Positions 2,787 through 34,263 of a stretch of DNA of 34,782 nt are shown here, piece after piece. The position numbers were made by a program, and so were the translations under genes. Each line of letters begins with the position of its first letter. Within the stretch, counting starts at the first letter, position 1. The stretch comes from a virus (Duplodnaviria > Caudoviricetes), in IMG/VR virus record IMGVR_UViG_3300012953_000094, positions 1 to 34,782 of that record. One strand, given 5' to 3'. The notes below the pieces were generated by a model, which had not been told where the DNA came from, made no database searches, and worked only from the letters and a program-made list of their open reading frames with translations.

Positions 2787-2787
2787 T

Positions 2788-3819: not shown

Positions 3820-3822
3820 CCA

Positions 3823-10123: not shown

Positions 10124-10126
10124 ATA
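10119..10126 (+). promoter_or_regulatory. Probable late promoter (CATAAATA) upstream of gp25
   Basis: 7/8 match overlapping the gp5 stop, followed by a GAGG RBS and the gp25 ATG at 10146. Confidence 0.5.
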
Positions 10127-10145
10127 ATGGTTAAAGAGGGCTAAA

Positions 10146-10592
10146 ATGGCAACGACTAGAGTATTCTCAACAGAAGATGGTAAACAAAATACTAGTACTA
10201 TTATTACTAGTAGATCTAAGGTTTTTAGAGATATAGATTTATCTTTTAATGCTAAACCTAACGGTGAGATTTATATTAAAAAAGATGCGGCTGCTGTAGT
10301 ACAATCCCTTAAAAATTTAATACAAACAAATTATTATGAAAAACCTTTTCAACCATTCTTTGGTGGTAATATACGGTCAATGTTATTTGAGTTAGCAGAT
10401 GATGATACTGAAGATGAATTGAGAGATCAGATTATCGATGCTATTAATGTATATGAACCAAGAGCACAATTGAGAAGGCTAGAGACAGAAGTAAATCACG
10501 AACGAAATGATTTGAATGTAACAATTGAATTCCAGGTTGTTAATACATCCGAACAAGTAACATTTACCACTATAATTTCAAGGTTAAGATAA
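10146..10592 (+). CDS. gp25: Baseplate wedge subunit / sheath initiator (T4 gp25-like)
   Basis: DIDLSF, D..AV.QSLKNL..T..YEKPF.P.FG..IR..LFE, YEPR and terminal RLR. Confidence 0.93.
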   Translation: MATTRVFSTEDGKQNTSTIITSRSKVFRDIDLSFNAKPNGEIYIKKDAAAVVQSLKNLIQTNYYEKPFQPFFGGNIRSMLFELADDDTEDELRDQIIDAINVYEPRAQLRRLETEVNHERNDLNVTIEFQVVNTSEQVTFTTIISRLR

Positions 10593-10593
10593 C

Positions 10594-12603
10594 ATGGCTA
10601 CAACAGTTAGATCAACAGCACTAGACTTTAATAATATAAAAAGTAATCTAAAAACCTTTTTAGAAAATAAAGAAGAGTTTAAAGATTATAACTTTGAGGC
10701 TTCAGGGCTCTCGAATATCCTTGATGTACTCGCGTATAACACGCATATAAACGGCCTAATAGCTAACTTCGCACTAAACGAGTCCTTTTTACCTACAGCT
10801 CAATTAAGATCTTCCGCAGTATCATTAGCAGAGGGTTTAGGTTATATTCCAAGTTCTGATACATCTTCTACTGCTGCGGTTCGTATTACTTTTAATTCAG
10901 CAGCATCTGGTAGAGATACAAAAGTTACTTTACCTGCATATACGAAATTTAATACTACTGTTGATGATATAAGTTATATTTTTCAAACGATAGAACCCTA
11001 TGAAGCAGAAGAATTAAGCACAACAGGATTTTATGAATTCAAAACAAAAGACGGTTTAAATAGAATTCCTTTACATGAAGGAACACTTAAATCAAAAACA
11101 TTTTTAGTAGGTGAATATCAAGACAATCCTGTTTATGTTATTCCGGATTCTACTTTAAATACAGAAACGGTTACGGTAAAAGTTTATAATAGCACAACAT
11201 CATCACAAAGCACTACATATCAAAACATAATAAAAGCAACAAGTATTAGTGCTAACTCTACAATTTATATTTTAAAAGAATCACCTAATGGTAATTTTGA
11301 ATTATCTTTTGGAGATGGGACAACATTTGGTATTGCTCCATCTGCAGGAAATAAAATTGAAATACAATATCTATCTGTTAAAGGTGAAGAAGCTAATGGA
11401 GCAAGTGCATTTACAGCTCAGTCTAATTTTAATTCAGGAACTATTAATTCTACATTAGATATAACAACTTGGTCAAATTCTGTAGGTGGTAAAGATAAAG
11501 AAAGTATAGAATCTATAAGACAAAATGCTCCTTTTTCTTATGCTACACAAAATAGAATGGTTACGGCTAAAGACTACTCATCTATAATATTAAAAAATTA
11601 TTCAAATTTAATTAGTGATATTATTTCATGGGGTGGTGAAGATAATGTATTAGCAGAATTCGGAGCAGTATATGTTTCTATATTGTTTGAAAATACTGTA
11701 ACACAAGATACTATTTCCTCTACTAAGCTTGCTATATTAGATTTAGCCGAACAATTAGCTGTCGTATCTTTTAATTTGCGTTTTGTAGATCCTGTTACAA
11801 CCTTTATCGAAGCAGATACATTCTTTCAATATAATCCAAGATTAACTGATTTAACAGTTAATGCTATATCTTCTAGTGTTAATACTACAGTTGCTAATTA
11901 CTTTGCTTCTAATACAGGTAAATTCGATCAATCTTTTAGACGATCAAACATGTTATCTTTAATAGATGAATCTTCAACCGCTATTTTATCTTCGCGGGCT
12001 AATATTAGAATGCAACAAAGAATAGTACCTTCCGTTCCTGATTTAATAACAACTATTAAATCATTATTAACAAGTCCCGGAACAGTAACAACTACTCAAT
12101 TAGATAAAATAGTTTCTATGGTAACTAAAAAAGCTTATAATGATGCAGCTACTTACATGCAAAATAATAGCTTATCCAGTAATAGTTTTACATATAATGT
12201 AAATAAATTAACACTTGCTGTTAATAAAATAAGTCAAATACTACAATTTCCTGCAGCTATAGCCGCAGCTGACAACGATGAATATATTATTACATCAACA
12301 CAATTTACATTTAATAATCAAATATGTTTAATAAAAAATCGTTTAAATTCGTCAACATTAGAAATATTAACCCAAGCAGGTGGTATAGTAGTTGTAGATA
12401 ATATAGGATCATATAATGCAATTGATGGCACAGTTACACTACAATACTTCAATCCAACTGCATTAAAGGCAGGCGAATCATTTATTAAAATATCTGCAGT
12501 GCCAGCTAATCAAAGTGCTTTAACACCTTATAGAAATGATAGGTTTGTTTATGATGCTAATAATTCTATAACAACACCTGTAGCAACGGATGTTACAAAT
12601 TAA
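10594..12603 (+). CDS. gp6: Baseplate wedge subunit (T4 gp6-like)
   Basis: LDF..IK.NLK.FL, FKDYNFE.SGLS.ILDVLAYNTH, NESFL.TAQLRSS.VS.A..LGY.P, FGDG, ESIESIR.NAP, QNR.VT..DY and WGGED. Confidence 0.95.
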   Translation: MATTVRSTALDFNNIKSNLKTFLENKEEFKDYNFEASGLSNILDVLAYNTHINGLIANFALNESFLPTAQLRSSAVSLAEGLGYIPSSDTSSTAAVRITFNSAASGRDTKVTLPAYTKFNTTVDDISYIFQTIEPYEAEELSTTGFYEFKTKDGLNRIPLHEGTLKSKTFLVGEYQDNPVYVIPDSTLNTETVTVKVYNSTTSSQSTTYQNIIKATSISANSTIYILKESPNGNFELSFGDGTTFGIAPSAGNKIEIQYLSVKGEEANGASAFTAQSNFNSGTINSTLDITTWSNSVGGKDKESIESIRQNAPFSYATQNRMVTAKDYSSIILKNYSNLISDIISWGGEDNVLAEFGAVYVSILFENTVTQDTISSTKLAILDLAEQLAVVSFNLRFVDPVTTFIEADTFFQYNPRLTDLTVNAISSSVNTTVANYFASNTGKFDQSFRRSNMLSLIDESSTAILSSRANIRMQQRIVPSVPDLITTIKSLLTSPGTVTTTQLDKIVSMVTKKAYNDAATYMQNNSLSSNSFTYNVNKLTLAVNKISQILQFPAAIAAADNDEYIITSTQFTFNNQICLIKNRLNSSTLEILTQAGGIVVVDNIGSYNAIDGTVTLQYFNPTALKAGESFIKISAVPANQSALTPYRNDRFVYDANNSITTPVATDVTN

Positions 12604-14144
12604 TGGATATAGAACACGATAAAACTAAATCGGATCTTAATAGACGATTATTAAATCTTCAAAGGGCTGAAATAAATAATGCCTTACCTGAATATTTTGA
12701 TCTTGAATTTCCAAAATTAAAAGCTTTATTTGAAGCTTATTATGAATATTTGGATTCCTCTGGCAATCCTGCAGGTCAAATTCATGATCTTTATGCTAGT
12801 AGAGATGCTACACAGGTTCCAGAAGAGTTATTAAAATATCTTGAAGATGAATTATTATTAGGACAAGCAACATTTGGTGGGTTTCAAAATAAAAGAGAAG
12901 CTTTAAAATTCTCTAATCAATTATATAGATCTAAAGGAACAAAGTATAGTGTTCAACAATTCTTTAGAGGATTCTATGGTGTTGATCCAACAATAATTTA
13001 TCCTAAAGAAAATATTTTTAGAGTAGGACCTTCTATAAATTGGGATCAAGATAGTATCAATACCTCAGGCCAACAAATAAAACAACCCGCATCACAATTA
13101 GGCCCGGAGTCTCAAAAATATATTACGGATGATGGTTTATATCAGGTTATGTCTATTTTAATAAAAAGTAGTATACCTGTTGAACAATGGAAGACAGCTT
13201 ATCAATTATTTGTACATCCTGCTGGCGCACATTTAGCTGCTCAGATAGTTTTAGAATTAGTTAATGGTAATGTAGTTCAAAGCTTACGAGAATCAGGACC
13301 AGGAACAGCTGCTCTATCAACGTTCCAAATAGAAACTATAGCTAATATGAATCTGTTGGGTTATACTGATCTTACTCTTCTACAAAAAGGTGATGGAACA
13401 GTTGGTATGATGAGAACCGATAGATTGAAAACAATGCAAGATCTTGAGAGTATATCTCTTGATAGTGCATCAGCGCATTCAATCCGTGGTCTAGTAACAC
13501 CAAACTCCCTAAGAATGTCAGACAGTGATGTTATTACATATACAGTAGCAGGAGATCCATCACAGTATAATAGCTATAGATATAATGATTCTGGTAATTC
13601 AGTTAGAAGATATAGCGCCATGTTTGGGGACGCACCTTATAGAGGGTCTAACGTTGGTATTCGTCAAATCAATCTAAGTAGTTCAATAGCACCTATTTTT
13701 TGGGTGGCTACTAATGGTATAGATCCAAGTTCCACAATTAATGGATTTCACAACATTGAAACCGATTATACAAATGCAGGATTTGATAGTTCAAAATTTG
13801 CTAATCCAGAACATGTAGTTGGTAAAGCAGTTACTGGCGCTAATAAAGTAACTAATTTACCAGGACTTATTATTATACATCCAGAAAAACCTAGATATGC
13901 ATTTAGAGTAGATAGTGATGTATACACTACATATGATACTACTCATCCAAATGCTCCATTTGGAACTTCTTCAGGAATGTCATTCCCATTAACATTAATG
14001 GTACAGAGCAGTAAGTCAGCAACATTTGATAGGGATTCTTCAGCTGATACATTAATGCCGACATTTGATGAGCATAGATATCAAACATTATTTGATTCTA
14101 CAGCAAATAGTGCAGATTCTGCTCATTATCCAACAGGACCTTAA
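12603..14144 (+). CDS. gp7: Baseplate wedge protein (gp7-like)
   Basis: Follows gp6 with a TAATG overlap. LPEYF..EFP.L..LFEAYYEYL, LYRSKGT..S...FFR..YG, YQ..S..IKS and VHPAG are typical gp7 motifs. The C-terminal half is unrecognised and DS-rich. Confidence 0.75.
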   Translation: MDIEHDKTKSDLNRRLLNLQRAEINNALPEYFDLEFPKLKALFEAYYEYLDSSGNPAGQIHDLYASRDATQVPEELLKYLEDELLLGQATFGGFQNKREALKFSNQLYRSKGTKYSVQQFFRGFYGVDPTIIYPKENIFRVGPSINWDQDSINTSGQQIKQPASQLGPESQKYITDDGLYQVMSILIKSSIPVEQWKTAYQLFVHPAGAHLAAQIVLELVNGNVVQSLRESGPGTAALSTFQIETIANMNLLGYTDLTLLQKGDGTVGMMRTDRLKTMQDLESISLDSASAHSIRGLVTPNSLRMSDSDVITYTVAGDPSQYNSYRYNDSGNSVRRYSAMFGDAPYRGSNVGIRQINLSSSIAPIFWVATNGIDPSSTINGFHNIETDYTNAGFDSSKFANPEHVVGKAVTGANKVTNLPGLIIIHPEKPRYAFRVDSDVYTTYDTTHPNAPFGTSSGMSFPLTLMVQSSKSATFDRDSSADTLMPTFDEHRYQTLFDSTANSADSAHYPTGP

Positions 14145-14154
14145 TTTAATCACG

Positions 14155-14162
14155 TATAAATA
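14155..14162 (+). promoter_or_regulatory. T4-type late promoter TATAAATA
   Basis: Perfect match in the 42-nt intergenic gap, 24 nt upstream of the ATG at 14187. Confidence 0.8.
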
Positions 14163-14186
14163 ATGTTAAGTAAAAAGAGATAAAAT

Positions 14187-15179
14187 ATGGCAAAACAAAC
14201 TATTAATACTGGCAGCTCAGCGAATGACGGAACAGGTGATACGTTAAGGCAAGCCGGTAATAAAATAAATCAAAACTTTACCGAAGTATATTCTTTATTT
14301 GGGAATAATGCTGCCGGTGTATCTGTTCTTACAGATAGTGGTATGGACTTTATAGGTTCTACTCATAGAACAAAGTTAGGTCATGTCAATCCAACCGCAG
14401 AAAGAAGTATTGATTTCCCTAATGCTACTGGAGAGGTGATAGTTACTTCCGCTACACAGACAATGACAAATAAAACATTAACAAGACCGATGCTTGATAG
14501 TGCTATATTTGATAGATTTAAAGTAAAAGATTTTGATTCATCACATAGTTATAATTTTGTACCAAGTAATCTTGCAGCGGATAGAAATGTTGTATTACCA
14601 TTATTAACAGGTCATGATACGTTAGTAATGGAAGCCCATACTCAAACATTAACTAATAAAACCTTAGCTCCTGACAATGTAGTTCACAGACCTAGAATCT
14701 GGGAATGGATAGCAGACTCCGCCGGCTTACCTATTATATCATTTACTACAACTCAACATTCACGTAATAGAATTAGAGTTGAAGGAAAAGGAACAGGAAT
14801 TAATCCTAAAATTTCTTTATTAGGAACTGATACTAATATTGGTTTAGATATTGAAACCGCGGGTGACAGAGCTGTTAATATATCTCTTTACGGTCACATG
14901 TCAGAATCTAAAACTGTTGGTGGAACAATTTCATTAACAAAAAGTCTTGTTATATTAACAGGGAATGCAGGAACAATAACTTTACCTGATGGTCAAGCGT
15001 CCGAACCAATAACAGTTACTATTATAAGACAAACTGGTACAGGAGATCAGGTTGTGGGCATAACTAGTTTTGGTCAAGGTTCAACAGGAGTTACATTACA
15101 ACAAAATGATACAGCTACATTAACTTGGGATGGTTCAAATTGGTATGTAACTGGTGGTTACGGTTACGCAGTATCTTAA
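14187..15179 (+). CDS. Baseplate wedge / tail-fibre connector (gp9/gp10-like N-terminus)
   Basis: MAKQTINTGSSANDGTGDTLR.AG.KIN.NFTEVY is the gp9/gp10 N-terminal motif. It has two TQT[ML]TNKTL fibre-type repeats and a C-terminal L.WDGSNWY beta-domain. Confidence 0.75.
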   Translation: MAKQTINTGSSANDGTGDTLRQAGNKINQNFTEVYSLFGNNAAGVSVLTDSGMDFIGSTHRTKLGHVNPTAERSIDFPNATGEVIVTSATQTMTNKTLTRPMLDSAIFDRFKVKDFDSSHSYNFVPSNLAADRNVVLPLLTGHDTLVMEAHTQTLTNKTLAPDNVVHRPRIWEWIADSAGLPIISFTTTQHSRNRIRVEGKGTGINPKISLLGTDTNIGLDIETAGDRAVNISLYGHMSESKTVGGTISLTKSLVILTGNAGTITLPDGQASEPITVTIIRQTGTGDQVVGITSFGQGSTGVTLQQNDTATLTWDGSNWYVTGGYGYAVS

Positions 15180-15191
15180 TAGGAAAAAATT

Positions 15192-16592
15192 ATGGCAGCA
15201 ATTATTACAGATAATATTAAAAGAACATTTTTAACTCAGCTATTTGATGAAGCAACCGGGACTAAACTCGGTGATTCTAATAATCAATATTACATAGCAG
15301 TAGGAAGATCACAGCAATGGGATCCTGTTGGAAATGCGGATACCGTTACAACACCTACGGTTACGACTCGAACAGAAAAATTATTTAGATATAATGTTCA
15401 ATCTGTTAAAGCAATAGAAGCATTTTCTCATGTTGTACCAACCAAAGATTGGACAAGTAATACTCAATATGCTATGTATAATGATAATACAGTAGGTCAT
15501 CCTACTACATCTTATTATGTAAAAACCAATGAAAATAATGTTTATGTATGTATTAGAACGGGTAAAGATGCAGCAGGTAATATTCAGGTATCAACAGTAA
15601 AGCCAACACATACTAATACAACATTACCAAAAGAAACAGATGGATATATTTGGAAATATATGTATACAATTTCTACAGCTGATACAAACTTCTTTTCTAC
15701 GTCAAATTATATGCCAGTTAAATTTATAGATTCAGCTGCTTCGACTGATGCCTATTTTGCACAATACGTCGTTCAAAATGCATCTACACCAGGACAAATA
15801 TTAGGTTATAGGGTTGTAACAGGAGGAACAGGTTATGATAGTTCAACAACATCTCTTTCAGTAATTGGAGATGGATCAGGAGCTAAATGTTATCCTATAG
15901 TAGGAGCTGGTGTTTTAACAGCTGTTGAGGTTGGAGAAAGTGCAGGAACAACCGATATAACATCTTTCTTAGGATCAGGTTATCATCAAGCTTCTATTAA
16001 AATAACTTCTCCAGGCGGAACCAATGCATCAATAGTTCCTATATTTGCTCATGATAGTAATGGATTAGGAGCTAACCCTATAAAAGATTTAAGATCAACC
16101 GCAATGATGTTTCATATTAAACCAGAAGGAAATGTGGGTGGTAAATGGATCTTAAAAAATGATTATAGGCAAATTGCTTTATGGAAAAACCCTTTAGTTG
16201 ATAGTGCATCAAAAGCAAAATTTATAGGTAACTCAGGCACGTGTTTAAGTCGAATGAGAACAACAGCAGTAATAGATGCCTCGTATGATTTTTCTAATGA
16301 TGCAGAAGTATCAGGTGATAGTAATGCCAAGGGCTGGATTGACTTTTGTGACAGTGATACAATTTGGTATCATCAAGATGAACAATCAGGATTTACTCCT
16401 TTTAGAAGTGGTGAAACAATTACATTAGAAGGTCTTGGCGGAACGAAAACTGTTAGGAATTATGATAATCTACATAATATTAGACCAGACATAAACAAAT
16501 TTTCTGGAGAATTATTCTTTATTAATAACGCTTCACAACAAACGCGTACATCAGCTAGTACTGATGATGTGAAACTAGTTATTCAACTTTGA
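15192..16592 (+). CDS. gp8: Baseplate wedge subunit (T4 gp8-like)
   Basis: MAAIITD, YYIAVGR...W, YYV.T...NVYVC, S..KPT, TDGYIWKYMYTI, YMPV, NDYRQI.L.KNP, SGE..FINN and DDVKLVIQL. Confidence 0.88.
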   Translation: MAAIITDNIKRTFLTQLFDEATGTKLGDSNNQYYIAVGRSQQWDPVGNADTVTTPTVTTRTEKLFRYNVQSVKAIEAFSHVVPTKDWTSNTQYAMYNDNTVGHPTTSYYVKTNENNVYVCIRTGKDAAGNIQVSTVKPTHTNTTLPKETDGYIWKYMYTISTADTNFFSTSNYMPVKFIDSAASTDAYFAQYVVQNASTPGQILGYRVVTGGTGYDSSTTSLSVIGDGSGAKCYPIVGAGVLTAVEVGESAGTTDITSFLGSGYHQASIKITSPGGTNASIVPIFAHDSNGLGANPIKDLRSTAMMFHIKPEGNVGGKWILKNDYRQIALWKNPLVDSASKAKFIGNSGTCLSRMRTTAVIDASYDFSNDAEVSGDSNAKGWIDFCDSDTIWYHQDEQSGFTPFRSGETITLEGLGGTKTVRNYDNLHNIRPDINKFSGELFFINNASQQTRTSASTDDVKLVIQL

Positions 16593-16600
16593 GGTAACCA

Positions 16601-19600
16601 ATGGCTACTAATTTAAGCAAAACAACTTTTTTAACACAATACAACGATGATTATCGAGATAGTGATCATTATCATCGTGTATTATTCAATAATGGTAAAG
16701 CGCTACAAGCTAGAGAACTAACACAAAGCCAGACCATAATTCAAAAAGAAGTTGAAAGGTTAGCAAAATTTATCTTAACTGAAGGAGCTATTATTAATAA
16801 TGCGGGTACATTAGCATCAGGTTCAGATGCTTTTTCATATACCTATATTAAAGTAACTTCATTACCAACAGGACATGCAACATTAGTAGGATCTACAGTT
16901 AATGATGGAGATTTATATGCTACTGTAAAAGCAACTATTCCTGATGGAACTCAAAATGTTATTATGGTAAGAATGGGAGCCGGTAAAACAGGTGGGTCAT
17001 CTGCTGCTACTGATACCTCATCACCTAAAAAATTCGCTGCTGGATCAGTCTTGTCTTCATCTTTAGGAAATATAACTATTGAAAATGTAGCTGATGCGGT
17101 TGGCAATGGTTCTATTATAGAAGTACCTGCCTTCAATACTTATGCAGCTGGTCATTTAATTAATGTAGAAGCACAAACATTAGTATTAGACAAATATAGT
17201 TCTACGCCCACTAAAACAGTAGGTTTTAAAGTCACTCAACAAATTATAACAGCAACTGATAATGTTGCGTTATATGATAATTCAGGTGCCACTCCTAACC
17301 TAACTTCTCCTGGTGCTGATAGATTAAAAATTACATTAACATTAACTACAAAAGATAAAATAGTTACTGGTGAAACATTTTATTCAATGTATGAAGTAAA
17401 AAATGGTAAAATTTTAAATACAGCTAGAACTACAAGTAAAATTTTAGGTAACCTATCAACAATTCTTAATGCTCGAACAGAAGCTATTACTGGTAATTTT
17501 ATTGAGAAAAGCACAAGCGGAGAATATAATTTAACAATTAAAAATGATAGTGCTAGCGGTGATTTTTTATCTGTAGAAGTATCAAGTGGTACAGCTTTTA
17601 TTAAAGGTAATAAAATAACCCGTGATAATCCAATGCCTTTCAGGGTAAGAAAACCTAATAATATTCTTGCCGGAGAAAATATAACAACAAGATCTAATGA
17701 ATTTGTAAGTGCTAGTTATGGTACTTATTTTCTTTCTAATTTAGATAGTTCTTTTGGAATGGCAAGTTTATTAGACACCTATGGTACTGTTAATTTAAAA
17801 GATGCTAGAGACTTGGGTGGTACAGTTGTAGGTTCAGCTAAAGTTAGAATGCTTGATCGATATGGAGCAGATTTAAGAACCCACGTATTTGATGTACAAA
17901 TGGATTCTAATGGTTCAGGTACAGTATATAACCTCGCTAATGTTAGAAGTGTAGGTATTAATTCTTCTAATTATATTAACTTAAAACAGGTTTTAGGTAG
18001 ATTTGATCTTTATGACAAACTAGGATCCAGTTTATTATTTCCATTACCTAAGTATGGAGTTAATGAAATATCTACAGTATCAGGAACAGTTGGTAAAGTA
18101 GTAGCTCATAGTAATGCAGCCTCTACTATTGCAGCGACATCAGGATCAGCCTTTGATGATTTTGAACAATGGTTATATGTTATGGATAGTGGGGACATTT
18201 ATAGTAACTTAACTATTACAGGAACAGATCCAGTTACAGTAACACATGGTTATAAAAATGGTGAAGCAACCCTTTCTCCATTGCCTTCTGGAACACACAA
18301 TGCTCATGTATTAACCTTTGAATCCAGAACATTAGAATTAAAAACAAAAACCTTAACACCAGATCCTTTAGGGCCAGGAGGTCCATATACTTGGGAAACA
18401 GACTCAAGTGTGTCTTTAAGTAATGGTCAATTTACGTTATCAAAAAATGATGTTTATCAATTTCATAAGGTAACCGATGATACAACAAGTGAGGATATAA
18501 CATATAAGTTTACATTTAATAACGGCCAAACCGATAATTATTATGGTCCAGGAACAGGTAAATTGAAGTCTGGTGCTTCTGCTCCAGCTGGTACTATAAA
18601 CGTACAATATAGATACTTTTTACATTCAACTCCTAGTCCGTCAACTAATACTGGTTACTTTGGTCCTAATTCTTATGTTAATATAAGCTATGATAAGATT
18701 CCGGAATTTTTAAGTCCTGCAGGAAGTGCATATCGATTAGCTGATGCTATTGATATGAGGCCTGCTAAAAATGCTGCGGATAATACATTCTCAGGCGGTG
18801 CTGCTAGAATTGAACTTATTCCAAGAAATAAAGATAATTTAACAGCAGGTACCGTAAAATATTGGAATCCTAGAGTAGATTGTATTTCAATGTCTCAAGA
18901 AGGTGTATTAGTATACAATTATGGTACAGCTGCGGAAAATCCTGGTATGCCAGCGAATATTGATCCTAATGATTTATTATTACATAAGCTTACTTTAAAT
19001 CCTTATACAATGAATAAAAATGATGTGCAGATACAGTCTCCTGATTATAGGGGATATAAAATGGAAGACATTCGACGAATAGATAAAAGACTAGGCCATC
19101 TAGAAAGAATGTATACCCTTACAGCAGCTGAATTAAATTTAGCTAAATTAGAAGTATATGATCCAGACAATGCTAATACTATTAGACAAACAGAAGGATT
19201 AACTGGAGATAATTTTCAAGATAAATTACAATCCGATTGGTTCAATGATGAATATAGAGCTAAAGTATATCAAGGAATGTTTGTAAATGCTGTAACACCA
19301 AAAATGTATAACAGAGCTATTGGTGTAACATATGATTCTGCAGCATCAGCTGGTACTTGTGTCATAAAAGGAAGTACCATATGGCCAACATATACAGAAA
19401 CAGTTGCTAACTTTAGTCAGGATAATGCAACAACCATAGAAAATGTAAACCAATTTGAAACACCACAACATATAGCAGCAGCTGAATTAATACCAGAAGG
19501 TGATTATTTTACAAAGAGACGATCAGTAGATCAAAGTTATTCTTCTCAATCAAATGAATCATTAATTGTCCCAGGTACAATGGAAGTTGTCACCAATGAA

Positions 19601-19603
19601 TAG
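16601..19603 (+). CDS. Large virion structural protein, VrlC/DUF4815-like, N-terminal part
   Basis: YNDDY....HYHRVLF..G.ALQARELTQ.Q.I.Q, L.DN..G.PN...PGADRLKI.L, F..GQ.DNYY, LAD.ID.RP and Y.M.DI..I.KR...LE.Y.L, which match the VrlC-like proteins of marine T4-like phages. Confidence 0.82.
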   Translation: MATNLSKTTFLTQYNDDYRDSDHYHRVLFNNGKALQARELTQSQTIIQKEVERLAKFILTEGAIINNAGTLASGSDAFSYTYIKVTSLPTGHATLVGSTVNDGDLYATVKATIPDGTQNVIMVRMGAGKTGGSSAATDTSSPKKFAAGSVLSSSLGNITIENVADAVGNGSIIEVPAFNTYAAGHLINVEAQTLVLDKYSSTPTKTVGFKVTQQIITATDNVALYDNSGATPNLTSPGADRLKITLTLTTKDKIVTGETFYSMYEVKNGKILNTARTTSKILGNLSTILNARTEAITGNFIEKSTSGEYNLTIKNDSASGDFLSVEVSSGTAFIKGNKITRDNPMPFRVRKPNNILAGENITTRSNEFVSASYGTYFLSNLDSSFGMASLLDTYGTVNLKDARDLGGTVVGSAKVRMLDRYGADLRTHVFDVQMDSNGSGTVYNLANVRSVGINSSNYINLKQVLGRFDLYDKLGSSLLFPLPKYGVNEISTVSGTVGKVVAHSNAASTIAATSGSAFDDFEQWLYVMDSGDIYSNLTITGTDPVTVTHGYKNGEATLSPLPSGTHNAHVLTFESRTLELKTKTLTPDPLGPGGPYTWETDSSVSLSNGQFTLSKNDVYQFHKVTDDTTSEDITYKFTFNNGQTDNYYGPGTGKLKSGASAPAGTINVQYRYFLHSTPSPSTNTGYFGPNSYVNISYDKIPEFLSPAGSAYRLADAIDMRPAKNAADNTFSGGAARIELIPRNKDNLTAGTVKYWNPRVDCISMSQEGVLVYNYGTAAENPGMPANIDPNDLLLHKLTLNPYTMNKNDVQIQSPDYRGYKMEDIRRIDKRLGHLERMYTLTAAELNLAKLEVYDPDNANTIRQTEGLTGDNFQDKLQSDWFNDEYRAKVYQGMFVNAVTPKMYNRAIGVTYDSAASAGTCVIKGSTIWPTYTETVANFSQDNATTIENVNQFETPQHIAAAELIPEGDYFTKRRSVDQSYSSQSNESLIVPGTMEVVTNE

Positions 19604-19612
19604 AGGTACCTA

Positions 19613-20374
19613 ATGCCATACATAGACGTAACAGTTCAAAAAACAGGATACAAGGATGTATCCCACCAAGCTAATCATGGTTATGATGCAATACCAATTC
19701 ATAGACCTAAATTTATATTTTTTGAATTTGTAGGTTTAAGGCCAAATATTCCACATTGGATTTTCTTTGGTAATAAATTAGTAACACAATTTATTAATAC
19801 TTCTTATTCAGAAGCTGATTACACATCAGCTAGTGGAAGTTCACCTTTAAAGGAACCTGGAGATCAATTTGTTAACGCTACCGCATTTCCATCAGCTGGA
19901 GGTTTAACATATTCTGGAGCAACAAATGGTGGATCACCAAGTACTCCAATAACATCCGATGCTAATGGTATATTAAATGGTGTATTTTACTTACAAAGTA
20001 GTAATGATTATCAGTGGACAATAAATACAGATGGTCATAAATTTATGGCTATTGATATATCTACGCCTGATAAATCTAAATGTAAATCATATGGAACGGC
20101 TACATTTAGAGGATTTGGACAATACGAGAATTATTATACATATACAACACAAGAAGCATACCAATATAGTGCTACAGAACAAGTATGGCAAGAACCCGCG
20201 CCTACTACTAATAACACACCTACTTCAACCCCTAATACAACCAATACTAAAAATGATGATGGTGGTAAGGATAAAGAAATGGGTTGGTATCAAATGGACT
20301 GTGCTTTAACAGGTGGAACATATAATTATCATGGTGATATCTTTCGGAAGTCATGGTTGGCATATGATTCATAA
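19613..20374 (+). CDS. Virion structural protein, similar to the middle segment of VrlC/DUF4815-like proteins, with Pro/Thr-rich tail
   Basis: HRPKFIFF...GLRPN..H.IFF and ITSDANG.L.GVFY resemble the R.....F...GLKP.T..Y.FFD and .TD..G...G.F segments of DUF4815 proteins. Low-complexity PAPTTNNTPTSTPNTTNT lies near the end. Confidence 0.55.
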   Translation: MPYIDVTVQKTGYKDVSHQANHGYDAIPIHRPKFIFFEFVGLRPNIPHWIFFGNKLVTQFINTSYSEADYTSASGSSPLKEPGDQFVNATAFPSAGGLTYSGATNGGSPSTPITSDANGILNGVFYLQSSNDYQWTINTDGHKFMAIDISTPDKSKCKSYGTATFRGFGQYENYYTYTTQEAYQYSATEQVWQEPAPTTNNTPTSTPNTTNTKNDDGGKDKEMGWYQMDCALTGGTYNYHGDIFRKSWLAYDS

Positions 20375-20885
20375 TAACGGAGCAACTTCATTAGGAGTAG
20401 AAGGTCATGGCACAAAAGCGATAAAAAATTCATCGACTGGTAATAGTCAATTAGTCGCAGAGACTCACAATGAGGCTAAGCAACATGATAACTATTCCGA
20501 TGCAGATAATTCTTCTAGTGGAGAAGGTACAGTGTTATGTAGTTTATTACATCGAAGAGGTTATTTAAATAAAGATGTGTGGGAACAGGACGAAGCTTTT
20601 GGTAATTTAGTTGATCCAGAAGTGTTAAGTGGATATCATACTTGGGCATTACCAATGGTAGAATGGATAGAAAAAGATTCTTTATTAGCTAAACTTTGGT
20701 TTTACGCTTGGGTTTTACCATTTACTAAATCTTGGGCTCAACATATAGCACACAAAATGGAACCTAAAAAATTTAAAGATAATAAAATTGGTTGGTTAAT
20801 GTTAACAATTGGTATTCCATTATGTAGGTCCATTGGCAAATTTAAAAAGAAAAATAACGAAATAGTTTCGGAACTATTAACTTAA
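20364..20885 (+). CDS. Hypothetical protein (Ser/Gly linker followed by a 'GTVLC...GY..WA' domain); start uncertain, possibly the frameshifted C-terminus of the previous gene
   Basis: The frame is open from 20310, with possible starts at GTG 20313 or ATG 20364. SSSGEGTVLCSLLHRRG...D..FG...GYHTWA.P.V...WA..IA...G..LC..IG resembles a small domain that often terminates phage structural proteins. Confidence 0.6.
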   Translation: MIHNNGATSLGVEGHGTKAIKNSSTGNSQLVAETHNEAKQHDNYSDADNSSSGEGTVLCSLLHRRGYLNKDVWEQDEAFGNLVDPEVLSGYHTWALPMVEWIEKDSLLAKLWFYAWVLPFTKSWAQHIAHKMEPKKFKDNKIGWLMLTIGIPLCRSIGKFKKKNNEIVSELLT

Positions 20886-20898
20886 TGAAGGTATAGAT

Positions 20899-22599
20899 AT
20901 GAGTCAAGCAGGTTTACTTCAGTTAGCTGAACAAAGAAATCCAACAGGGCAAACATTTGTTGTCGATGAATCCAGCACCTTAACTGGTATAGGTATATTT
21001 TTTGCTAAAGCACCAGCAGATGATAATTATGGTATCACAATAGAAATGAGACCTACTACAGAAGGCGGTGCTCCTTCTTCATTAAGATTTGTTCCTGGAA
21101 CACGAGTAAGTGCAACAGCAGCCCAAATTAGAGCAAAGACAGATCCAGGCGGGACATATGCAGGTAATACTTTTTCTGCCGCTCGTGAATATAAATTTGA
21201 ATTCAAACATCCAATACACGTGCCTAGCAATACCTTATGTTCGTTTGTAATATATACTTCTGCTCCTGCGGGACAATATCAAATGTATGTTGCTAGAAAT
21301 TTAGATTATCTATATGGAAGCACTGAAGCATTTTATACTTTTAATTCCTCAACCGAAATGGGTGCATATTATAGTTCCTCTAATGGAACATCTTGGGAAG
21401 CAGATAATAGTAAAGACGTTACTTTTAAAATATATAAAGCACAATTTACTACGGCTACGGCGGCGACAGCTGTTTGTTATGCTAATAATCCCGGACCTAA
21501 AAAATTAACAGAATCTACAGTTAGAGATGGACTTAGTCATTATGCATTTGATCCCTTAACCTTTACAGCTGCGAGTCAATCAGTAAAAGTACGACATCCT
21601 GTTCATGGGTTTCAACCAGGCGATAAAGTTGTTTTAAGTTCAGATGGTGTTAATAGTTTTGACAGTAGCTCAACTATTAATGGTGTAATGGGTAGAAGTA
21701 TATTAGGTGAAAGAGTATTAACAGGTGTAGATGCATTTGGATATACTTTTAATATGGATTCAGCTGCCACAGCAAATCTTAGAGCCGGTGGTACTGGTTT
21801 AATGGCTACAGAGAACTATGCTATAGATCAAATACGTCTTAGTATGGCTAATGTTACACCAAAGAAAACAGCCCTAATGGCTAAAATAGATCTTACTACT
21901 AGTAAATCATTAGCGGGTGGCGAAACAGCTTATTCAACTACTTCGGATATAAGATTAACACCTTTTAAAACAGGTCGATTGAAAAACCCACATTTGATTG
22001 CTACTACAGAAAATGAGACATTAAGATTAAGTGGTAATCCTTCTGGTAAACTTACAGTAAGTATGTGGACGGATGATCCTAATGTTGCACCACATTTTAA
22101 TGTTAATACTGCATATCTAGGATGTGAAACAGTAATGGTTGATTATGCTGCATCAGCGGTTACACCTCAAAGAAACAATCTAGTAACAACCCCTTACATA
22201 GCAGATACTGAGGCAGATGGTGGCACAGCAGCCGCGCAACATATGACTATACCATATAAATTAGAAACAGCAGCGACCTCGATAGTTGTTTATATGGATG
22301 CTGTAAGACCAAAGGGTGCAGACTTTAATATATACTGGAGAACAAAAGCCGCGGGAGATGATATAACAAAATTATCAGAACAGGGTTGGACAGCTTTTAG
22401 TAAAACAAATAAGCAAGTAAAAGGTTTAGGTTATTTTGATATAGCTCCTACAGATGATTATGCTGCTTTTAGAGAATATGCTTTTAGTGTATTTAATTTA
22501 AATGCCTTTGATGAATATCAAGTAAAAATTACAATGCACACAACTAGGCAAACATATCCACCTGTATTTACAAATTTAAGAACGATAGCTACATCATGA
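20899..22599 (+). CDS. Virion structural protein, similar to the C-terminal segment of VrlC/DUF4815-like proteins
   Basis: P.GQTF.V, TGIGIFF, F.F..PI.., SSNG.SW.....D.TF.IYKA.F, V.HP.HG...GD.V, FREY.F, F.EYQVKI.M and P....LR.IA. Confidence 0.75.
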   Translation: MSQAGLLQLAEQRNPTGQTFVVDESSTLTGIGIFFAKAPADDNYGITIEMRPTTEGGAPSSLRFVPGTRVSATAAQIRAKTDPGGTYAGNTFSAAREYKFEFKHPIHVPSNTLCSFVIYTSAPAGQYQMYVARNLDYLYGSTEAFYTFNSSTEMGAYYSSSNGTSWEADNSKDVTFKIYKAQFTTATAATAVCYANNPGPKKLTESTVRDGLSHYAFDPLTFTAASQSVKVRHPVHGFQPGDKVVLSSDGVNSFDSSSTINGVMGRSILGERVLTGVDAFGYTFNMDSAATANLRAGGTGLMATENYAIDQIRLSMANVTPKKTALMAKIDLTTSKSLAGGETAYSTTSDIRLTPFKTGRLKNPHLIATTENETLRLSGNPSGKLTVSMWTDDPNVAPHFNVNTAYLGCETVMVDYAASAVTPQRNNLVTTPYIADTEADGGTAAAQHMTIPYKLETAATSIVVYMDAVRPKGADFNIYWRTKAAGDDITKLSEQGWTAFSKTNKQVKGLGYFDIAPTDDYAAFREYAFSVFNLNAFDEYQVKITMHTTRQTYPPVFTNLRTIATS

Positions 22600-22817
22600 T
22601 GAAAGCATTTAAACCAAGACCTTTACAAGAGGTAAAAGACTTTCCTGACTTTAGACGTGATGAAGTAACAGGTATGATAGTCAATATAAATAAACGTAAA
22701 ACAACTGAGAGAATGGAACAGGTAAAAAGGGATCAGGAATTACAAGATCTTCGAACAGAAGTTTCAGGAATCAAAGGTATGTTGAATAAAATATTAGAGA
22801 GAGTATCCAATGCCTAA
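22596..22817 (+). CDS. Small coiled-coil hypothetical protein
   Basis: 73 aa. V...P...RD..TG.IVN plus C-terminal L..EV..IK.ML..IL, a pattern often seen after VrlC-like genes. ATGA overlap with the upstream gene. Confidence 0.7.
   Translation: MMKAFKPRPLQEVKDFPDFRRDEVTGMIVNINKRKTTERMEQVKRDQELQDLRTEVSGIKGMLNKILERVSNA
22685..22692 (+). promoter_or_regulatory. T4-type late promoter TATAAATA upstream of the tail fibre gene
   Basis: Perfect match inside the small ORF, about 118 nt upstream of ATG 22810. Confidence 0.5.
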
Positions 22818-24525
22818 TTCAAAGATACCATATACAAATTTAACAGATAATATAAATGTTCATCGATTAAGACATAATCAATTAATTGATTCTGTTGGTG
22901 ACGTATCTACTTTGACAACAACATCTAAACAGGTTGTAGGTGGTATTAAAGAATTAGTAGGTCGAGTAGATAGTATTAATAATACACAATTGTTATCGCC
23001 TAAGATGACTTTAAGAGATAGTTCTGCTACTAATATTATTAAAGGTAATTTAGATACACACGGAACACTCAATACAAATGGATTATCAACATTTGATAGT
23101 GCAACAATTAGAGGTAGCTTACTTGTAGATTATCCTGTAAGGATGAACAGAGGACCCCTAGAAGTAATTTCTGGAGGATCTATAATCAATGGCAAACCCA
23201 GATTTGTAAATTCAGTTGCAGGAGATAGTGCAGAATTTACAGGGCATGTTGCAATTGGTGGTGGGTTAAGAGTCGTTGGTGATACTAAGATAGAAGGTAA
23301 TCATACAATAGGTGGTAAGTTAGTTATTGGCGACGCAGATACAGATACAGTTTCATTTGCGGCGGATATTAATACTAATTTAACTCCAGATGTAGACAAT
23401 TCTTTTGATCTTGGAGATAGTGCAAAAGAATGGAAAGATCTTTGGGTCGATGGAACCGGTAATATTGATAATATAATTTCAGATACCGCAACATTAGGAT
23501 CAGCTAAGATTTCTGATTTAACTGCTGGCAGGGTTTTAATAGCAGGTACAAGTGGTGAAATTGAAGATGATGCTAAATTATCTTGGAATACTACTACAGG
23601 ATTAAAATTAACCGAAGCTTTAAAAGTTGAAGATAGTGCTTATATAACAGGTAACTTGGCTATTGGCGGTACTATTACTGCTAATAATTATGCTAATAAT
23701 GAAATTATTATTAATTCAACTCATACAGGATCTCCATCAATAAATGGTGGTTTGGTAATTAATCGTGGTTCTTTTGATAATGCAAAATTATTCTGGGATG
23801 AAACTAATAACTATTGGGTTGCTCATAACGATAGTGCTGCATCTAAATCAGGCACACTTAGTAGAATTATAACAGCTGCTCAGATTGGAATTAAACCTAA
23901 TAGTGGTTTAGCATATGATACAGCAGATGGTAAATTTAGATTAGACTCTTCTCAACTACCAAATTTCTTTGAAAATGTGACTCTTTCTACGATGAACATT
24001 TCCGAATTAAATAATGCATCTATTGGCATCACCGCAACCAACGGTGATATTACTATGGGTGCTACTAATGGTACAGTTAATATAACGGGTGATACAGGAA
24101 ACATTAATCTTACTTCAGGGGCGGATATACAATATATCGCTACTGGGGGTGAACATATATTCAAGAGAACCGGTACTTCTAATACACCCTCTAATATTGA
24201 AATATGGAATCCTGCAACATCATCTGCGGCGACAAGTCAGGGCGAAATTAGATGGAATGGCCTAGATAACGCCGGTAACACTCAGACATATGCTCGCTTT
24301 AATTCTTGGGCATGGAATAATACTAATGGTGCTGAATGTGGTAAACTTGAACTTTCAGTTGTAGCAGGAGGATCATTAATGCCAAGGATGACATGGGATA
24401 GTTCATCTGTAACATTTAATAATACTGGAAGAATTATGCTAGGGACTTCGGCAAATGCAACTGTGCTTAATATCGTTAATTCTTCAGGAACCGTTGTTAA
24501 GAAAATTATTGGCACTTCGCAGTAG
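22810..24525 (+). CDS. Tail fibre / fibre-like structural protein
   Basis: Rich in G/T/S/N beta-repeats (V.G...I.GN.TIGG; P..DN.FDLG....W.DL.VDG; G..INRG...NA..FWDE...YW). Position after the baseplate genes. Confidence 0.7.
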   Translation: MPNSKIPYTNLTDNINVHRLRHNQLIDSVGDVSTLTTTSKQVVGGIKELVGRVDSINNTQLLSPKMTLRDSSATNIIKGNLDTHGTLNTNGLSTFDSATIRGSLLVDYPVRMNRGPLEVISGGSIINGKPRFVNSVAGDSAEFTGHVAIGGGLRVVGDTKIEGNHTIGGKLVIGDADTDTVSFAADINTNLTPDVDNSFDLGDSAKEWKDLWVDGTGNIDNIISDTATLGSAKISDLTAGRVLIAGTSGEIEDDAKLSWNTTTGLKLTEALKVEDSAYITGNLAIGGTITANNYANNEIIINSTHTGSPSINGGLVINRGSFDNAKLFWDETNNYWVAHNDSAASKSGTLSRIITAAQIGIKPNSGLAYDTADGKFRLDSSQLPNFFENVTLSTMNISELNNASIGITATNGDITMGATNGTVNITGDTGNINLTSGADIQYIATGGEHIFKRTGTSNTPSNIEIWNPATSSAATSQGEIRWNGLDNAGNTQTYARFNSWAWNNTNGAECGKLELSVVAGGSLMPRMTWDSSSVTFNNTGRIMLGTSANATVLNIVNSSGTVVKKIIGTSQ

Positions 24526-24533
24526 AGGTTGTT

Positions 24534-25508
24534 ATGGCTGTTAGAGAACCATTATATTGGACAGGTTCAGAACTAAAGGGAATGTCCACTGCTCAAGTAA
24601 CCGATTGGGTTGAGTATATTGCAGATAATCTTTGGGGTAATGATCCCAATGTCACTCTTTCTATAGTTTCTTCTGGAGGTAATCTAGGAGGTATAGATGA
24701 TACTAGAAAAGCTGCAGGTGCCTATCTATCGTTTACTACTAGTTTTCCATCAGAAGCATTTACAGCTGAGCCGTATACGGTCACAGTAACTCACGATAAA
24801 ATTGAGAGAACAGAAACTGTAGTTAGTAGTCAGAGTGACATTAATAGTACTAGATGGCCTGTTTATTGGTCCGGTTCTGATATAAGAGCAATGGATGCCA
24901 CAGATGTTCGTGATACATTTATTAGACCAGCTCTAACAAGAATAGTTGATGGTTCTGCTAGATATGGTACATATACTATATCAACCTCTTCTTTTAATGG
25001 ACCTGGTTATGTGGAGATGAGTGGCTTACCCGGAGGAACACCTATTTTTACTGATACTCGAGCTGATACAGCAGCTTATGCAGCAGGGTCTATTCCAGAA
25101 ACACAAGATCAACCAACAAACATAACTTATTATTATCTACATCGCATGGACTTTAATGCTCTTACATCAACATCGCAACCTTCAGAAAGACCGTTATTTA
25201 TTAATTCCTGGAATGGTTCATATGATTTATATGAATATGATACGCCTGGAGGTTATCATGACCTTGATGCTTTCTTTCAAAAACAATTACGGTCAAACGC
25301 GCAAAGCGACACAGGATATAGAATTACTTATGCTCTTAACTCTCCTGTTGGGAATGTTCTGGGAACAGGTATGGTAGATACTATATTAAACGGATCAGGT
25401 AATTATCAACAACGTTATGTGAATACTAATGATTATCGAGCGCAAGAGTTTCCCAACGGTACTCAAACAACAGCCGGTACACATTATTTGAAAATTTACA
25501 ATTGGTAG
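24534..25508 (+). CDS. Hypothetical virion-associated protein with three internal repeats
   Basis: GAGG RBS. Repeated P[LV][YF]..(W).GS and DT[RI] units; rich in T/G/Y. Confidence 0.6.
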   Translation: MAVREPLYWTGSELKGMSTAQVTDWVEYIADNLWGNDPNVTLSIVSSGGNLGGIDDTRKAAGAYLSFTTSFPSEAFTAEPYTVTVTHDKIERTETVVSSQSDINSTRWPVYWSGSDIRAMDATDVRDTFIRPALTRIVDGSARYGTYTISTSSFNGPGYVEMSGLPGGTPIFTDTRADTAAYAAGSIPETQDQPTNITYYYLHRMDFNALTSTSQPSERPLFINSWNGSYDLYEYDTPGGYHDLDAFFQKQLRSNAQSDTGYRITYALNSPVGNVLGTGMVDTILNGSGNYQQRYVNTNDYRAQEFPNGTQTTAGTHYLKIYNW

Positions 25509-25517
25509 GAGAAAATT

Positions 25518-26009
25518 ATGGAAGGACATAAATATTTAACAGCGCATTTTTGTGATAAAGAAAAGCGAACAGTTGAAGCATATTGGGTGGATACAAAAAC
25601 TAAGATTAAAAAGGGCCAACAGAAACCTGTTCGACTTAGTTATATTAATGTTGATCCTAAGGATAGTCAATATCAAAATTTATTAAAGCATGTTACTGTA
25701 GATGATTTACATGCTAACACATGGGCTAATATAAAAGAACAACGAAAAGCATATGAAGAATCAATAGCTAAACTCGCTGCTGCCGAAGGCATGGATGTTA
25801 AAGGCTTAGCTAAAGATCAAAAATATGATTTATTCTTTGAAATGATAGACCAAAGTATGGATATGAGTGAAGAAGATTTATTTAGATTTAAACTTAGGCT
25901 TTTTGAGACTCCCAAACTGGCGGAATCTAAAGATAGAAAAGCAAAAGCTGAACTTAGAAAATCAAGTACCTTTAAAGAAATGGTTGTGGCTTATATAAAC
26001 ATAGGTTAA
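25518..26009 (+). CDS. Hypothetical protein (charged, helical; possibly an assembly chaperone)
   Basis: AGGAG RBS, 163-aa K/E-rich ORF. No family recognised. Confidence 0.6.
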   Translation: MEGHKYLTAHFCDKEKRTVEAYWVDTKTKIKKGQQKPVRLSYINVDPKDSQYQNLLKHVTVDDLHANTWANIKEQRKAYEESIAKLAAAEGMDVKGLAKDQKYDLFFEMIDQSMDMSEEDLFRFKLRLFETPKLAESKDRKAKAELRKSSTFKEMVVAYINIG

Positions 26010-26010
26010 T

Positions 26011-26742
26011 ATGAAAAATATATTATGTGTCAAGTGGGGTGATAAGTATGACTCCTACGTTGAAAAATTAAAAAAACAAATCGAAGATCATTGTTCTTAT
26101 GATTTTAATTTTTATTGTTTAACAGACAATCCTCAAAACGATTACGACATCCAATTACCTACAACTTGGGATCCTTATTATAATCCCGAGACTAATTACT
26201 TTTGGGCTTATCGTAAATGTTATATGTTTAATGAGGATTTATTCCCACAAATAAAAGGTGATGAATTTTTATTCTTTGACCTCGATGTTTTCTTTCATAA
26301 ATCAATAGATGAATTTTTTAAACTTGATATGGATAAACCTTGGATAGTTAGAGGTTGGTGGAATGATGCCGATAATTGTAAAAAGAATTTTGGTAAAATA
26401 AAATCTACTCCTCTTAATTCTTCTATTATAAGATGGAACAGAGGTCAATTAAAACCATTATATAATCATATAGAAAAACATTATGAATATATTTTCTTTA
26501 CTTATTCAACTATTGATAATTATTTTAATCAATGTTGGTATAATATACACGAAGAAGAAGAAGGTTATTTAAAAGGGTTTAATAAAGGGTTGATTTATTC
26601 TTGGTATAAGGGTAATATATTTCCTAATGATATGGAAACAAAAATTTTAAGAAAAGATCATACAGTATGTTTGTTTAATAATAGTGCACAAGGCGTAGAT
26701 GAACATATGAATCAAATTAAAGAGCTAAAAAATTTATGGTAG
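26011..26742 (+). CDS. Putative glycosyltransferase (GT-A fold, nucleotide-diphospho-sugar transferase)
   Basis: N-terminal ILCVKWGDKY...YV.KL, F.CLTD, W...K..MF, FFDLD (DxD motif), NSSI..W and YSW. Confidence 0.8.
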   Translation: MKNILCVKWGDKYDSYVEKLKKQIEDHCSYDFNFYCLTDNPQNDYDIQLPTTWDPYYNPETNYFWAYRKCYMFNEDLFPQIKGDEFLFFDLDVFFHKSIDEFFKLDMDKPWIVRGWWNDADNCKKNFGKIKSTPLNSSIIRWNRGQLKPLYNHIEKHYEYIFFTYSTIDNYFNQCWYNIHEEEEGYLKGFNKGLIYSWYKGNIFPNDMETKILRKDHTVCLFNNSAQGVDEHMNQIKELKNLW

Positions 26743-34195: not shown

Positions 34196-34263
34196 ACTTA
34201 GATATATCTTAATAGGATTATTTAGAAAAAATTCAAAACCTCCAAATTTTATATACGAAAAAG

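Follow-up and report, generated by a model that had tools for sequence, protein, structure and literature searches.

An Asp-Ser-small tripeptide enriched on outer virion proteins of T4-like phages and avoided elsewhere: a candidate sequon for phage-encoded serine O-glycosylation

We have analyzed a 34,782-nucleotide stretch of viral DNA (IMG/VR record IMGVR_UViG_3300012953_000094; referred to here as the window), a 34.8-kb fragment, with 32% GC, of a marine T4-like phage. It runs from the tail tube through the baseplate and VrlC to a probable fibre and an island of enzyme genes. The dipeptide Asp-Ser followed by Ala, Asp, or Ser, less often by Asn or Gly (DS-small), is concentrated in the outer virion proteins of this phage and its relatives and is avoided in their other proteins; this pattern is real and clade-wide. 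DS-small is quite probably a site of some kind that is read by an enzyme. The sequence comparisons incline us, by a small margin, to regard it as a sequon for phage-encoded serine O-glycosylation, in which a cytoplasmic enzyme would place the first sugar on Ser. We propose more tentatively that a minimal phage Maf-type enzyme reads this sequon and primes a lipopolysaccharide (LPS)-like glycan coat, probably from host CMP-Kdo, over the outer virion in two unrelated uncultured aquatic lineages.

The original prediction, made from the window by eye, held that the phage may modify Ser or Asp at Asp-Ser (DS) sites on exposed proteins by means of the enzymes encoded next to them. The idea of a modification sequon has gained from the clade-wide exterior excess, from the avoidance of DS-small elsewhere, from the way sites turn over, and from the presence of a candidate O-glycosyltransferase of the cytoplasm; the window enzymes are not supported as writers.

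Results

Exterior excess and avoidance elsewhere

In the long contigs of the motif-bearing clade, two of which are complete, the motif is concentrated in the sheath, gp14, gp15, gp7, gp8, gp9, VrlC, and the long fibres, the last with up to 50 copies per 1,896 amino acids; five motif-free genomes have zero or one such motif-rich protein each. Forty-nine core families are common to the motif-bearing (eight contigs) and motif-free (five genomes) phages. Eight of these were classed as exterior, from a list modelled on T4 anatomy, and 41 as other.

In the exterior families of the eight motif-bearing contigs, DSA (69 versus 15.7 expected), DSD (78 versus 12.8), DSS (52 versus 15.8), and DSN (25 versus 11.6) were all in excess, while DSI, DSL, DSV, and DST fell under expectation, as did DTA (12 versus 18.6). 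In the 41 non-exterior families of the same contigs, DS-small occurred 44 times against 116.6 expected (P ≤0.033 for each contig) and DSA 3 times against 22.7; the corresponding DS-small count in the five motif-free genomes was 60 against 74.4. DS followed by a bulky residue (DS-bulky) was much less avoided in these families of the motif-bearing phages (168 versus 248) and stood at 123 versus 162 in the motif-free ones; the extra loss in the motif-bearing phages is therefore specific to a small third residue. DS-small was absent there from gp6 (14.8 expected), the tube family (5.7), the terminase (4.7), and the polymerase (4.5), proteins in which DS-bulky numbered 15 against 11.6. A cytoplasmic enzyme able to read the tripeptide would be expected to cause just such avoidance in polymerase, helicase, and terminase, which is not predicted if the motif is a structural habit. 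The major capsid protein carries DS-small in motif-free phages too (11 versus 3.4), so that its presence in both groups is no evidence either way.

NSA was also low in the non-exterior core families of the motif clade (8 versus 20.2), which may be a chance result or a sign that Asn is avoided where it deamidates to Asp.

Site turnover in gp8

The gp8 set comprised 120 sequences, the window's own and 119 of the 120 matches listed (the best 120 of 1,731; one short match was dropped). Among these, DS was the top dipeptide (793 versus 359 expected), and it was followed by Ala 308, Asp 178, Asn 99, Ser 84, Thr 48, and Gly 24 times. DS-small was spread over 46 alignment columns, with 185 parsimony changes on a FastTree tree, a figure that misalignment inflates. 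Asp and Ser were gained and lost jointly; at position 337, for example, Ser was found in 53 of the 55 rows with a preceding Asp and in 1 of the 65 with another residue there.

The level of the motif was bimodal across 91 loci. A gp8 tree of 101 rows placed the window inside a single clade of 66 (support 100), and in 64 of these rows DS-small around gp8 was about 2-fold or more above chance, the two exceptions being phage C48C1 and locus L062. Outside the clade (n = 35), the top DS-small value was 12 against 5.9 expected.

The motif in the window

The nearest GenBank phage to the window is C48C1 (by gp8 and gp6, and by gp23 for a relative), followed further out by Pelagibacter, OM43, and cyanobacterial myophages. 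The C48C1 record names no host, our literature search gave no paper on this phage, and 12 genome-bin matches were scattered over unrelated phyla and thus uninformative on the host. The features of the window that bear on the motif are as follows; the labels gp7-like, gp9-like, gp8, gp6, gp25, gp53, gp48, and gp5 rest on Pfam/PHROG matches, and that of gp8 on its fold as well (ORF, open reading frame).

1692..12603, plus strand: inner baseplate block with gp48 (1692-2786), gp53, hub, three gp5-locus genes, gp25, and gp6; 3 DS (15.9 expected), DS-small 1 (5.5 expected)
12603..14144, plus strand: gp7-like wedge subunit (PF23786); 10 DS, 3.5 expected
14187..15179, plus strand: gp9/10-like fibre connector (PF07880); 4 DS, 1.6 expected
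15192..16592, plus strand: gp8 wedge subunit (Pfam/PHROG match and predicted fold); 7 DS, 2.7 expected
16601..19603, plus strand: VrlC-like N-terminal part (DUF4815); 7 DS, third residue always A, S, D, N, or G
19613..20885, plus strand: two ORFs between the VrlC halves, one of 253 amino acids with a single C-terminal DS and one of 184 amino acids with a single DSL
20899..22599, plus strand: VrlC-like C-terminal part; 2 DS, in DSS and DSA
22810..24525, plus strand: probable tail fibre of 571 amino acids, labelled from its position, with no family match; 10 DS (3.5 expected), five of them DSA
24534..34746, plus strand: enzyme cluster with GT-A-like (26011-26742), two radical SAM, Asp/Asn beta-hydroxylase-like (28561-29232), carbamoyltransferase, and kinase-like genes; no DS-small

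The manual counts of the original prediction were reproduced. The nine outer ORFs (12603-24525; 3,956 amino acids) contain 42 DS, distributed as had been tallied (including 2 in the ORFs between the VrlC halves), against 21.2 expected from the composition of each protein; none of 3,000 shuffles reached 42, including local shuffles over 50 and 20 residues, and DS ranked first in enrichment among the 400 dipeptides. The reported scarcity in the eight inner ORFs (3,623 amino acids) was equaled in only 1 of the 3,000 shuffles, and DS ranked first in depletion there. The bias of the third residue was likewise as described (Ala 14, Ser 11, Asp 4, Asn 4, and Gly 3 of the 42), which amounts to 36 DS[ASDNG] against 8.1 expected. 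In the 11 downstream ORFs, where DS had been said to precede bulky residues, 7 DS were found (11.4 expected) and none was DS-small (3.3 expected). The claimed excess needs qualification: it holds for the outer set overall and not for the N-terminal (7 versus 5.4) and C-terminal (2 versus 2.3) parts of VrlC, in which only the third residue is biased. Over all 30 ORFs of the window, with no block chosen, DSA was rank 1 of 8,000 tripeptides (14 versus 3.4).

The related dipeptides SD (14 versus 21.2), DT (20 versus 26.0), ES (9 versus 12.8), and NS (21 versus 24.4) were not enriched in the outer set. The window sites are single and dispersed and form no tandem repeat, as had been noted, and both types of Ser codon encode them (AGT 25, TCN 17), in agreement with the view that the signal lies at the protein level. 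The motif follows the reading frame, and GANTC shows no avoidance (80 versus 68.6 expected); a DNA-site cause, such as avoidance of GANTC or of palindromes, was therefore rejected. A calcium-loop element was rejected also, since none of the 42 sites lies in a Dx[DN]x[DN] context, and protease cleavage after Asp was rejected by reasoning, as exposed structural proteins would be cut.

AGT encodes 25 of the 42 DS serines and 69 of the 301 other serines in 12603-24525, a bias that may be a trace of sites that arose from Asn, Gly, or Asp-type codons.

A candidate writer outside the window

A gene family of about 200 codons, with a predicted Maf/CstII-like fold, is present in six of the seven long motif-bearing contigs (both complete ones included) and in C48C1; a close family member was found in none of the five motif-free genomes. 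Of the 23 contigs with this Maf-like gene that were searched, 10 also contain gp8, and all 10 of these further contigs are motif-rich. One copy of the gene lies at L117:6478-7077 on the minus strand. The best structural match of the Maf-like model was the Maf glycosyltransferase 5MU5 (Z 11.6, root mean square deviation 3.5, 165 aligned residues), a comparison between about 200 and 632 amino acids that covers only residues 271 to 507 of 5MU5 at 13% identity. Further matches were CstI (Z 9.6), SteA (Z 9.5), and pyrophosphokinases (Z 6.5 to 8.9), and Foldseek returned CstII (E 2e-4, TM of about 0.4) for a model with a predicted local distance difference test (pLDDT) score of 93. By sequence, the protein had no match in the PDB, and a curated-family search of four members gave one weak match to the MptE-like family PF01973 (E 0.06).

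The gene ends a conserved block of the order GT25-GT25-GT-Maf-like (GT, glycosyltransferase), with GT25 genes two positions upstream in 76 of 77 loci and three positions upstream in 67 of 73. This block sits in an island with epimerase, aminotransferase, GT8, GT9, and methyltransferase genes. A search of 14 genomes for genes of CMP-nonulosonate pathways found neither NeuB (0/14) nor CTP_transf_3 (KdsB/NeuA; 0/14), and the sugar donor would thus have to come from the host.

The enzyme cluster that adjoins the fibre gene in the window is not the likely writer, as judged from gene content. The motif-free Pelagibacter phage Mosig carries homologues of six of its 11 genes (p324, p163, p253, radical SAM, carbamoyltransferase, and p400), and the cluster was rejected in this role; p324 and p163 were not found in the motif-rich genomes G001 and G002. 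Hydroxylation of Asp at DS sites, also part of the original prediction, fared no better, since hydroxylase-like genes do not track the motif: they occur in 3 of the 10 motif-bearing genomes compared and also in 2 of the 5 that are motif-free.

A second lineage

Of 50,697 GenBank phage records, only C48C1 and DSL-LC06 matched the Maf-like protein. The latter is a 29.8-kb tailed phage with a tape measure and a lambda-like tube, whose genome was assembled from a metagenome (PMC10611076). In DSL-LC06 and 13 near-complete relatives (14 siphoviruses), a homologue lies beside fibre-like genes or was detected by profile; five relatives were chosen for their capsid similarity without regard to the gene, which is present in all five complete ones. 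A locus search with the single DSL-LC06 sequence gave no matches.

DSA ranked 1 to 11 of 8,000 tripeptides in 12 of the 14 siphoviruses and 44 and 1,170 in the other two. The motif is usually D-S-A-G and occurs at single sites in capsid, tube, hub, and fibre proteins (DS[AS] in 1 to 10 columns per family); tape measure, terminase, portal, and scaffold proteins have 2 DS[AS] against 13.0 expected. The structural region of DSL-LC06 contains 20 DS-small against 7.0. In four HTVC pelagiphages with a related capsid, the Maf-like gene was not found, and DSA ranked 2,680, 1,050, 40, and 2,997, the last two in half genomes. Among 124 family profiles of the T4-like clade, only the Maf-like profile matched more than 3 of the 14 siphoviruses, and it matched 13.

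The Maf-like gene of DSL-LC06 (8460-9017) adjoins genes for a GT9 heptosyltransferase-like protein, two methyltransferases, a KpsC-annotated protein, and two other glycosyltransferases (L251, OR003941, 1732-9017), a set that resembles that for an LPS core.

Discussion

Phage virions assemble in the cytoplasm. We postulate that the Maf-like enzyme would read the tripeptide in loops of any protein that it meets in the infected cell, and that selection would add sites where a glycan helps (the particle surface) and remove them where it is harmful (tube, gp6, terminase, polymerase, and helicase). A host CMP-ulosonate, for instance CMP-Kdo, would serve as donor, and the glycan may then be extended by the neighboring GT25, GT8, and GT9 enzymes. 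Its purpose, at a guess, could be shielding from proteases and less sticking to particles or decoy receptors.

A purely structural explanation is that DS-small is a habit of the lineage, an Asx-turn, hairpin, or helix N-cap in beta-rich outer proteins that was partly spread by fibre repeats, with no modification at all. In the AlphaFold monomer model of gp8 (pLDDT 93), all seven DS serines lie outside helices and strands, compared with 20 of 34 other serines; DS-bulky, however, is equally placed in loops (97 of 100, against 664 of 693 for DS-small), and loop placement therefore cannot separate a sequon from a turn. A structural role is also consistent with the conservation of four gp8 columns in about 100 of 125 rows, with the periodicity of DS in fibre repeats such as those of C48C1 gp9, and with DS-small in the major capsid protein of motif-free phages. 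It nevertheless offers no account of why polymerase, terminase, helicase, gp6, and tube should be so poor in DS-small, and orthologues of the same fold in sister phages do without the motif. DT, NS, and ES also cap turns and are not enriched. Moreover, the sites are single and lie across unrelated folds of two phage lineages, and none of the 42 in the window is in a calcium-loop context. We consider an unmodified turn unlikely. A non-covalent docking or ion-binding site, for a decoration protein, a metal, a mineral, or an exopolymer, is a good deal less probable still: the surface-only distribution and the pairing of acidic and hydroxyl side chains would suit it, but three residues are short for binding, a catalyst would better explain why cytoplasmic enzymes avoid the motif, and no decoration gene tracks both lineages.

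If the site is modified, the adduct need not be a sugar transferred by a Maf. Another phage enzyme (GT25, a GT-A enzyme of the window type, a kinase, or an Asp hydroxylase), or a phospho- or pyrophosphotransferase of Maf fold, could be responsible, to which we give the same low weight as to an unmodified turn. GT25 tracks the T4-like clade as well (6/7 versus 0/5) and lies close upstream of the Maf-like gene, the fold is common to pyrophosphokinases, and the window has GT-A-like, Asp-hydroxylase-like, and kinase-like genes. However, the GT25 profile matches none of the 14 motif-bearing siphoviruses, the GT-A family occurs in 3 of these 14 and in 1 of 5 motif-free T4-like phages, and hydroxylase-like genes are absent from the four siphoviruses tested and present in Mosig. 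It is improbable, at about the level of a docking site, that the writer is a cytoplasmic glycosyltransferase or kinase of the host, whose activity the phages exploit outside and avoid inside. A common host group could account for the motif in two unrelated lineages, and avoidance in non-virion proteins requires only that the enzyme be cytoplasmic; on the other hand, both lineages carry the related phage gene and glycan clusters. Bacteroidota rarely use Shine-Dalgarno sequences; of the 29 window genes, 12 have a Shine-Dalgarno core, compared with 2.5 in shuffled controls, which argues against a host from this phylum. The Bacteroidota system also modifies only exported proteins (PMC8729774). That system was excluded as the writer because it is periplasmic, its third residue differs, and DT is not enriched here.

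Several observations weigh against serine O-glycosylation by a Maf-like enzyme as we propose it. When any of the 400 dipeptides and any contiguous block of at least 3 of 28 ORFs was allowed, 17 of 100 shuffled windows matched the DS excess; the window alone is therefore suggestive, and the proof is carried by its relatives. Among these, the list of exterior families was fixed only after a first whole-contig count, the orthologues are not independent, and the motif-free phage HTVC008M likewise has few DS-small in its non-exterior families (7 versus 15.0). The Maf-like gene is not present in the 35-kb window, and its presence in the window phage is deduced from the tree, in which the carrier L019 falls in the window's nine-row gp8 subclade; the gene was not found in the motif-rich genomes G005 (61% complete) and G008 (37% complete). 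C48C1 has the gene, yet its core exterior proteins contain 5 DS-small against 7.5 expected. There, DSD, DSE, and DSA are retained only in gp9 repeat units, fibres, and sheath and are lost from gp8, VrlC, and gp14 (L009 15242-19948 and L144), possibly a motif system in retreat. Among the T4-like phages, the motif and the gene coincide in a single clade and so count as one event, and GT25 genes and two unrelated families mark that same clade. The fold also includes SteA and pyrophosphokinases, and known Mafs act without a sequon (PMC12645811).

The link to the siphoviruses is subject to similar reservations. One siphovirus, G047, carries the gene yet has DSA at rank 1,170, and the gene-free HTVC siphoviruses show a mild structural excess of DS-small (52 versus 35.9). 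The two motif-linked Maf-like subfamilies have two C-terminal motifs in common (26/29 and 12/22) that are absent from 11/11 and 5/5 homologues of motif-free phages, but these patterns were picked by eye; the siphovirus profile scores freshwater members at 93 to 109 bits and members of the T4-like clade at 51 to 106, and monophyly of the two subfamilies is neither rejected nor shown (p-AU 0.52). Nor is the fold specific to motif-bearing phages: the freshwater members form a third subfamily in a T4-like lineage, close relatives of which have no DS excess in gp7, gp8, and VrlC, a pairing that is indirect, as gene and baseplate lie on different contigs linked by 95% gp48 identity; no alternative Ser/Thr motif stood out in 16 outer proteins from four contigs of this lineage. 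Distant homologues also occur in Mosig, HTVC008M, and G007, which lack the motif. The fold is thus common in aquatic phages, and the pairing of gene and motif in the siphoviruses could have arisen by chance.

The unannotated distant Maf/CstII-like genes in these three phages lie at L158:752-1309, L158:4180-4983, L160:489-1319, L156:6172-7029, and L137:10249-11058 (three in HTVC008M, the others in Mosig and G007).

The proposed system is reminiscent of the Maf flagellin O-glycosyltransferases, which are cytoplasmic, act on Ser and Thr, and in some cases accept CMP-Kdo (PMC12645811, PMC11339370). The likeness lies in the predicted fold, that of 5MU5, and in the proposed stepwise modification of Ser/Thr, within the cytoplasm, on a protein destined for an external structure. 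Unlike the Mafs, which target flagellin without a known sequon (PMC12645811), the candidate is phage encoded, has about 200 amino acids, and is known from its sequence and predicted fold. Bacteroidota O-glycosylation uses the sequon D-(S/T)-(A/I/L/V/M/T), extended with S, G, F, and C, on exported proteins only (PMC8729774). Common to both are Asp before the acceptor, tolerance of Ala, Ser, and Gly after it, and avoidance of the motif where modification is unwanted; here, by contrast, the acceptor is Ser only, Asp and Asn are favored and Ile, Leu, Val, Met, and Thr disfavored after it, and the targets are virion proteins assembled in the cytoplasm.

Glycosylation of virions by phage-encoded glycosyltransferases has been reported in mycobacteriophages, at the C termini of capsid and tail tube subunits (Freeman et al. 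2023, as cited in PMC12619734 and PMC10877033). There, too, virion proteins are the targets, but the sites described here are many, internal, and dispersed over at least 10 proteins, avoidance is proteome-wide, and the tail tube of the T4-like phages is motif-free. The staphylococcal enzymes SdgB and SdgA, which O-GlcNAcylate Ser-Asp repeat proteins and thereby guard surface proteins from proteases (PMC3794999), likewise use Ser adjoining Asp as the key. Their substrates are long SD tandem repeats on adhesins; in the present case the sites are single D-S-small tripeptides, SD is not enriched, and the candidate enzyme has another fold. For the LPS-like glycosyltransferase islands of pelagimyophages and cyanomyophages, the host O-chain has been proposed as the target (PMC7029224). 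The island described here resembles these in being rich in glycosyltransferases and in its position after VrlC in marine T4-like phages; it differs in that no virion sequon is named in the part of that report available to us and that the two Pelagibacter myophages tested here lack the motif. A literature search, whose scope left most subscription journals aside, found no paper that describes this motif.

If the Maf-primed coat of the two lineages is correct, many marine virions would be glycoparticles, the "LPS" islands would serve the particle and not the host, and the proteomes of both lineages would have been rewritten, with sites gained outside and purged inside. Serine O-glycosylation at DS-small would supply an acceptor for the islands of glycosyltransferase genes in marine T4-like phages, which are at present mostly taken as modifiers of the host surface. 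Phage virion glycosylation, until now a matter of a few terminal sites, would become a sequon-driven system that extends over the particle and is legible from sequence alone. A cytoplasmic O-glycosyltransferase of 200 residues with a three-residue sequon would also be unusual, because known Mafs have none.

Other features of the window

The 324-codon and 163-codon genes 3' of the fibre gene (24534-26009), which have no family match, are paired in both motif-bearing and motif-free phages, usually ahead of a GT-like gene. They precede the island at 27498-34746, with its two radical SAM proteins and its Asp/Asn hydroxylase-like, carbamoyltransferase, and kinase-like genes. VrlC is divided into two genes for its N- and C-terminal parts (16601-22599), with two ORFs inserted between them; the second of these (184 amino acids; 20331-20885) has no homologue in the long contigs compared and encodes a helical, Trp-rich end segment. 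The gp5 locus (5193-10123) consists of three genes, which encode an OB fold with a tail lysozyme, an unassigned protein of 497 amino acids, and an M15 peptidase fused to a needle part; the 497-amino-acid protein is specific to the motif clade.

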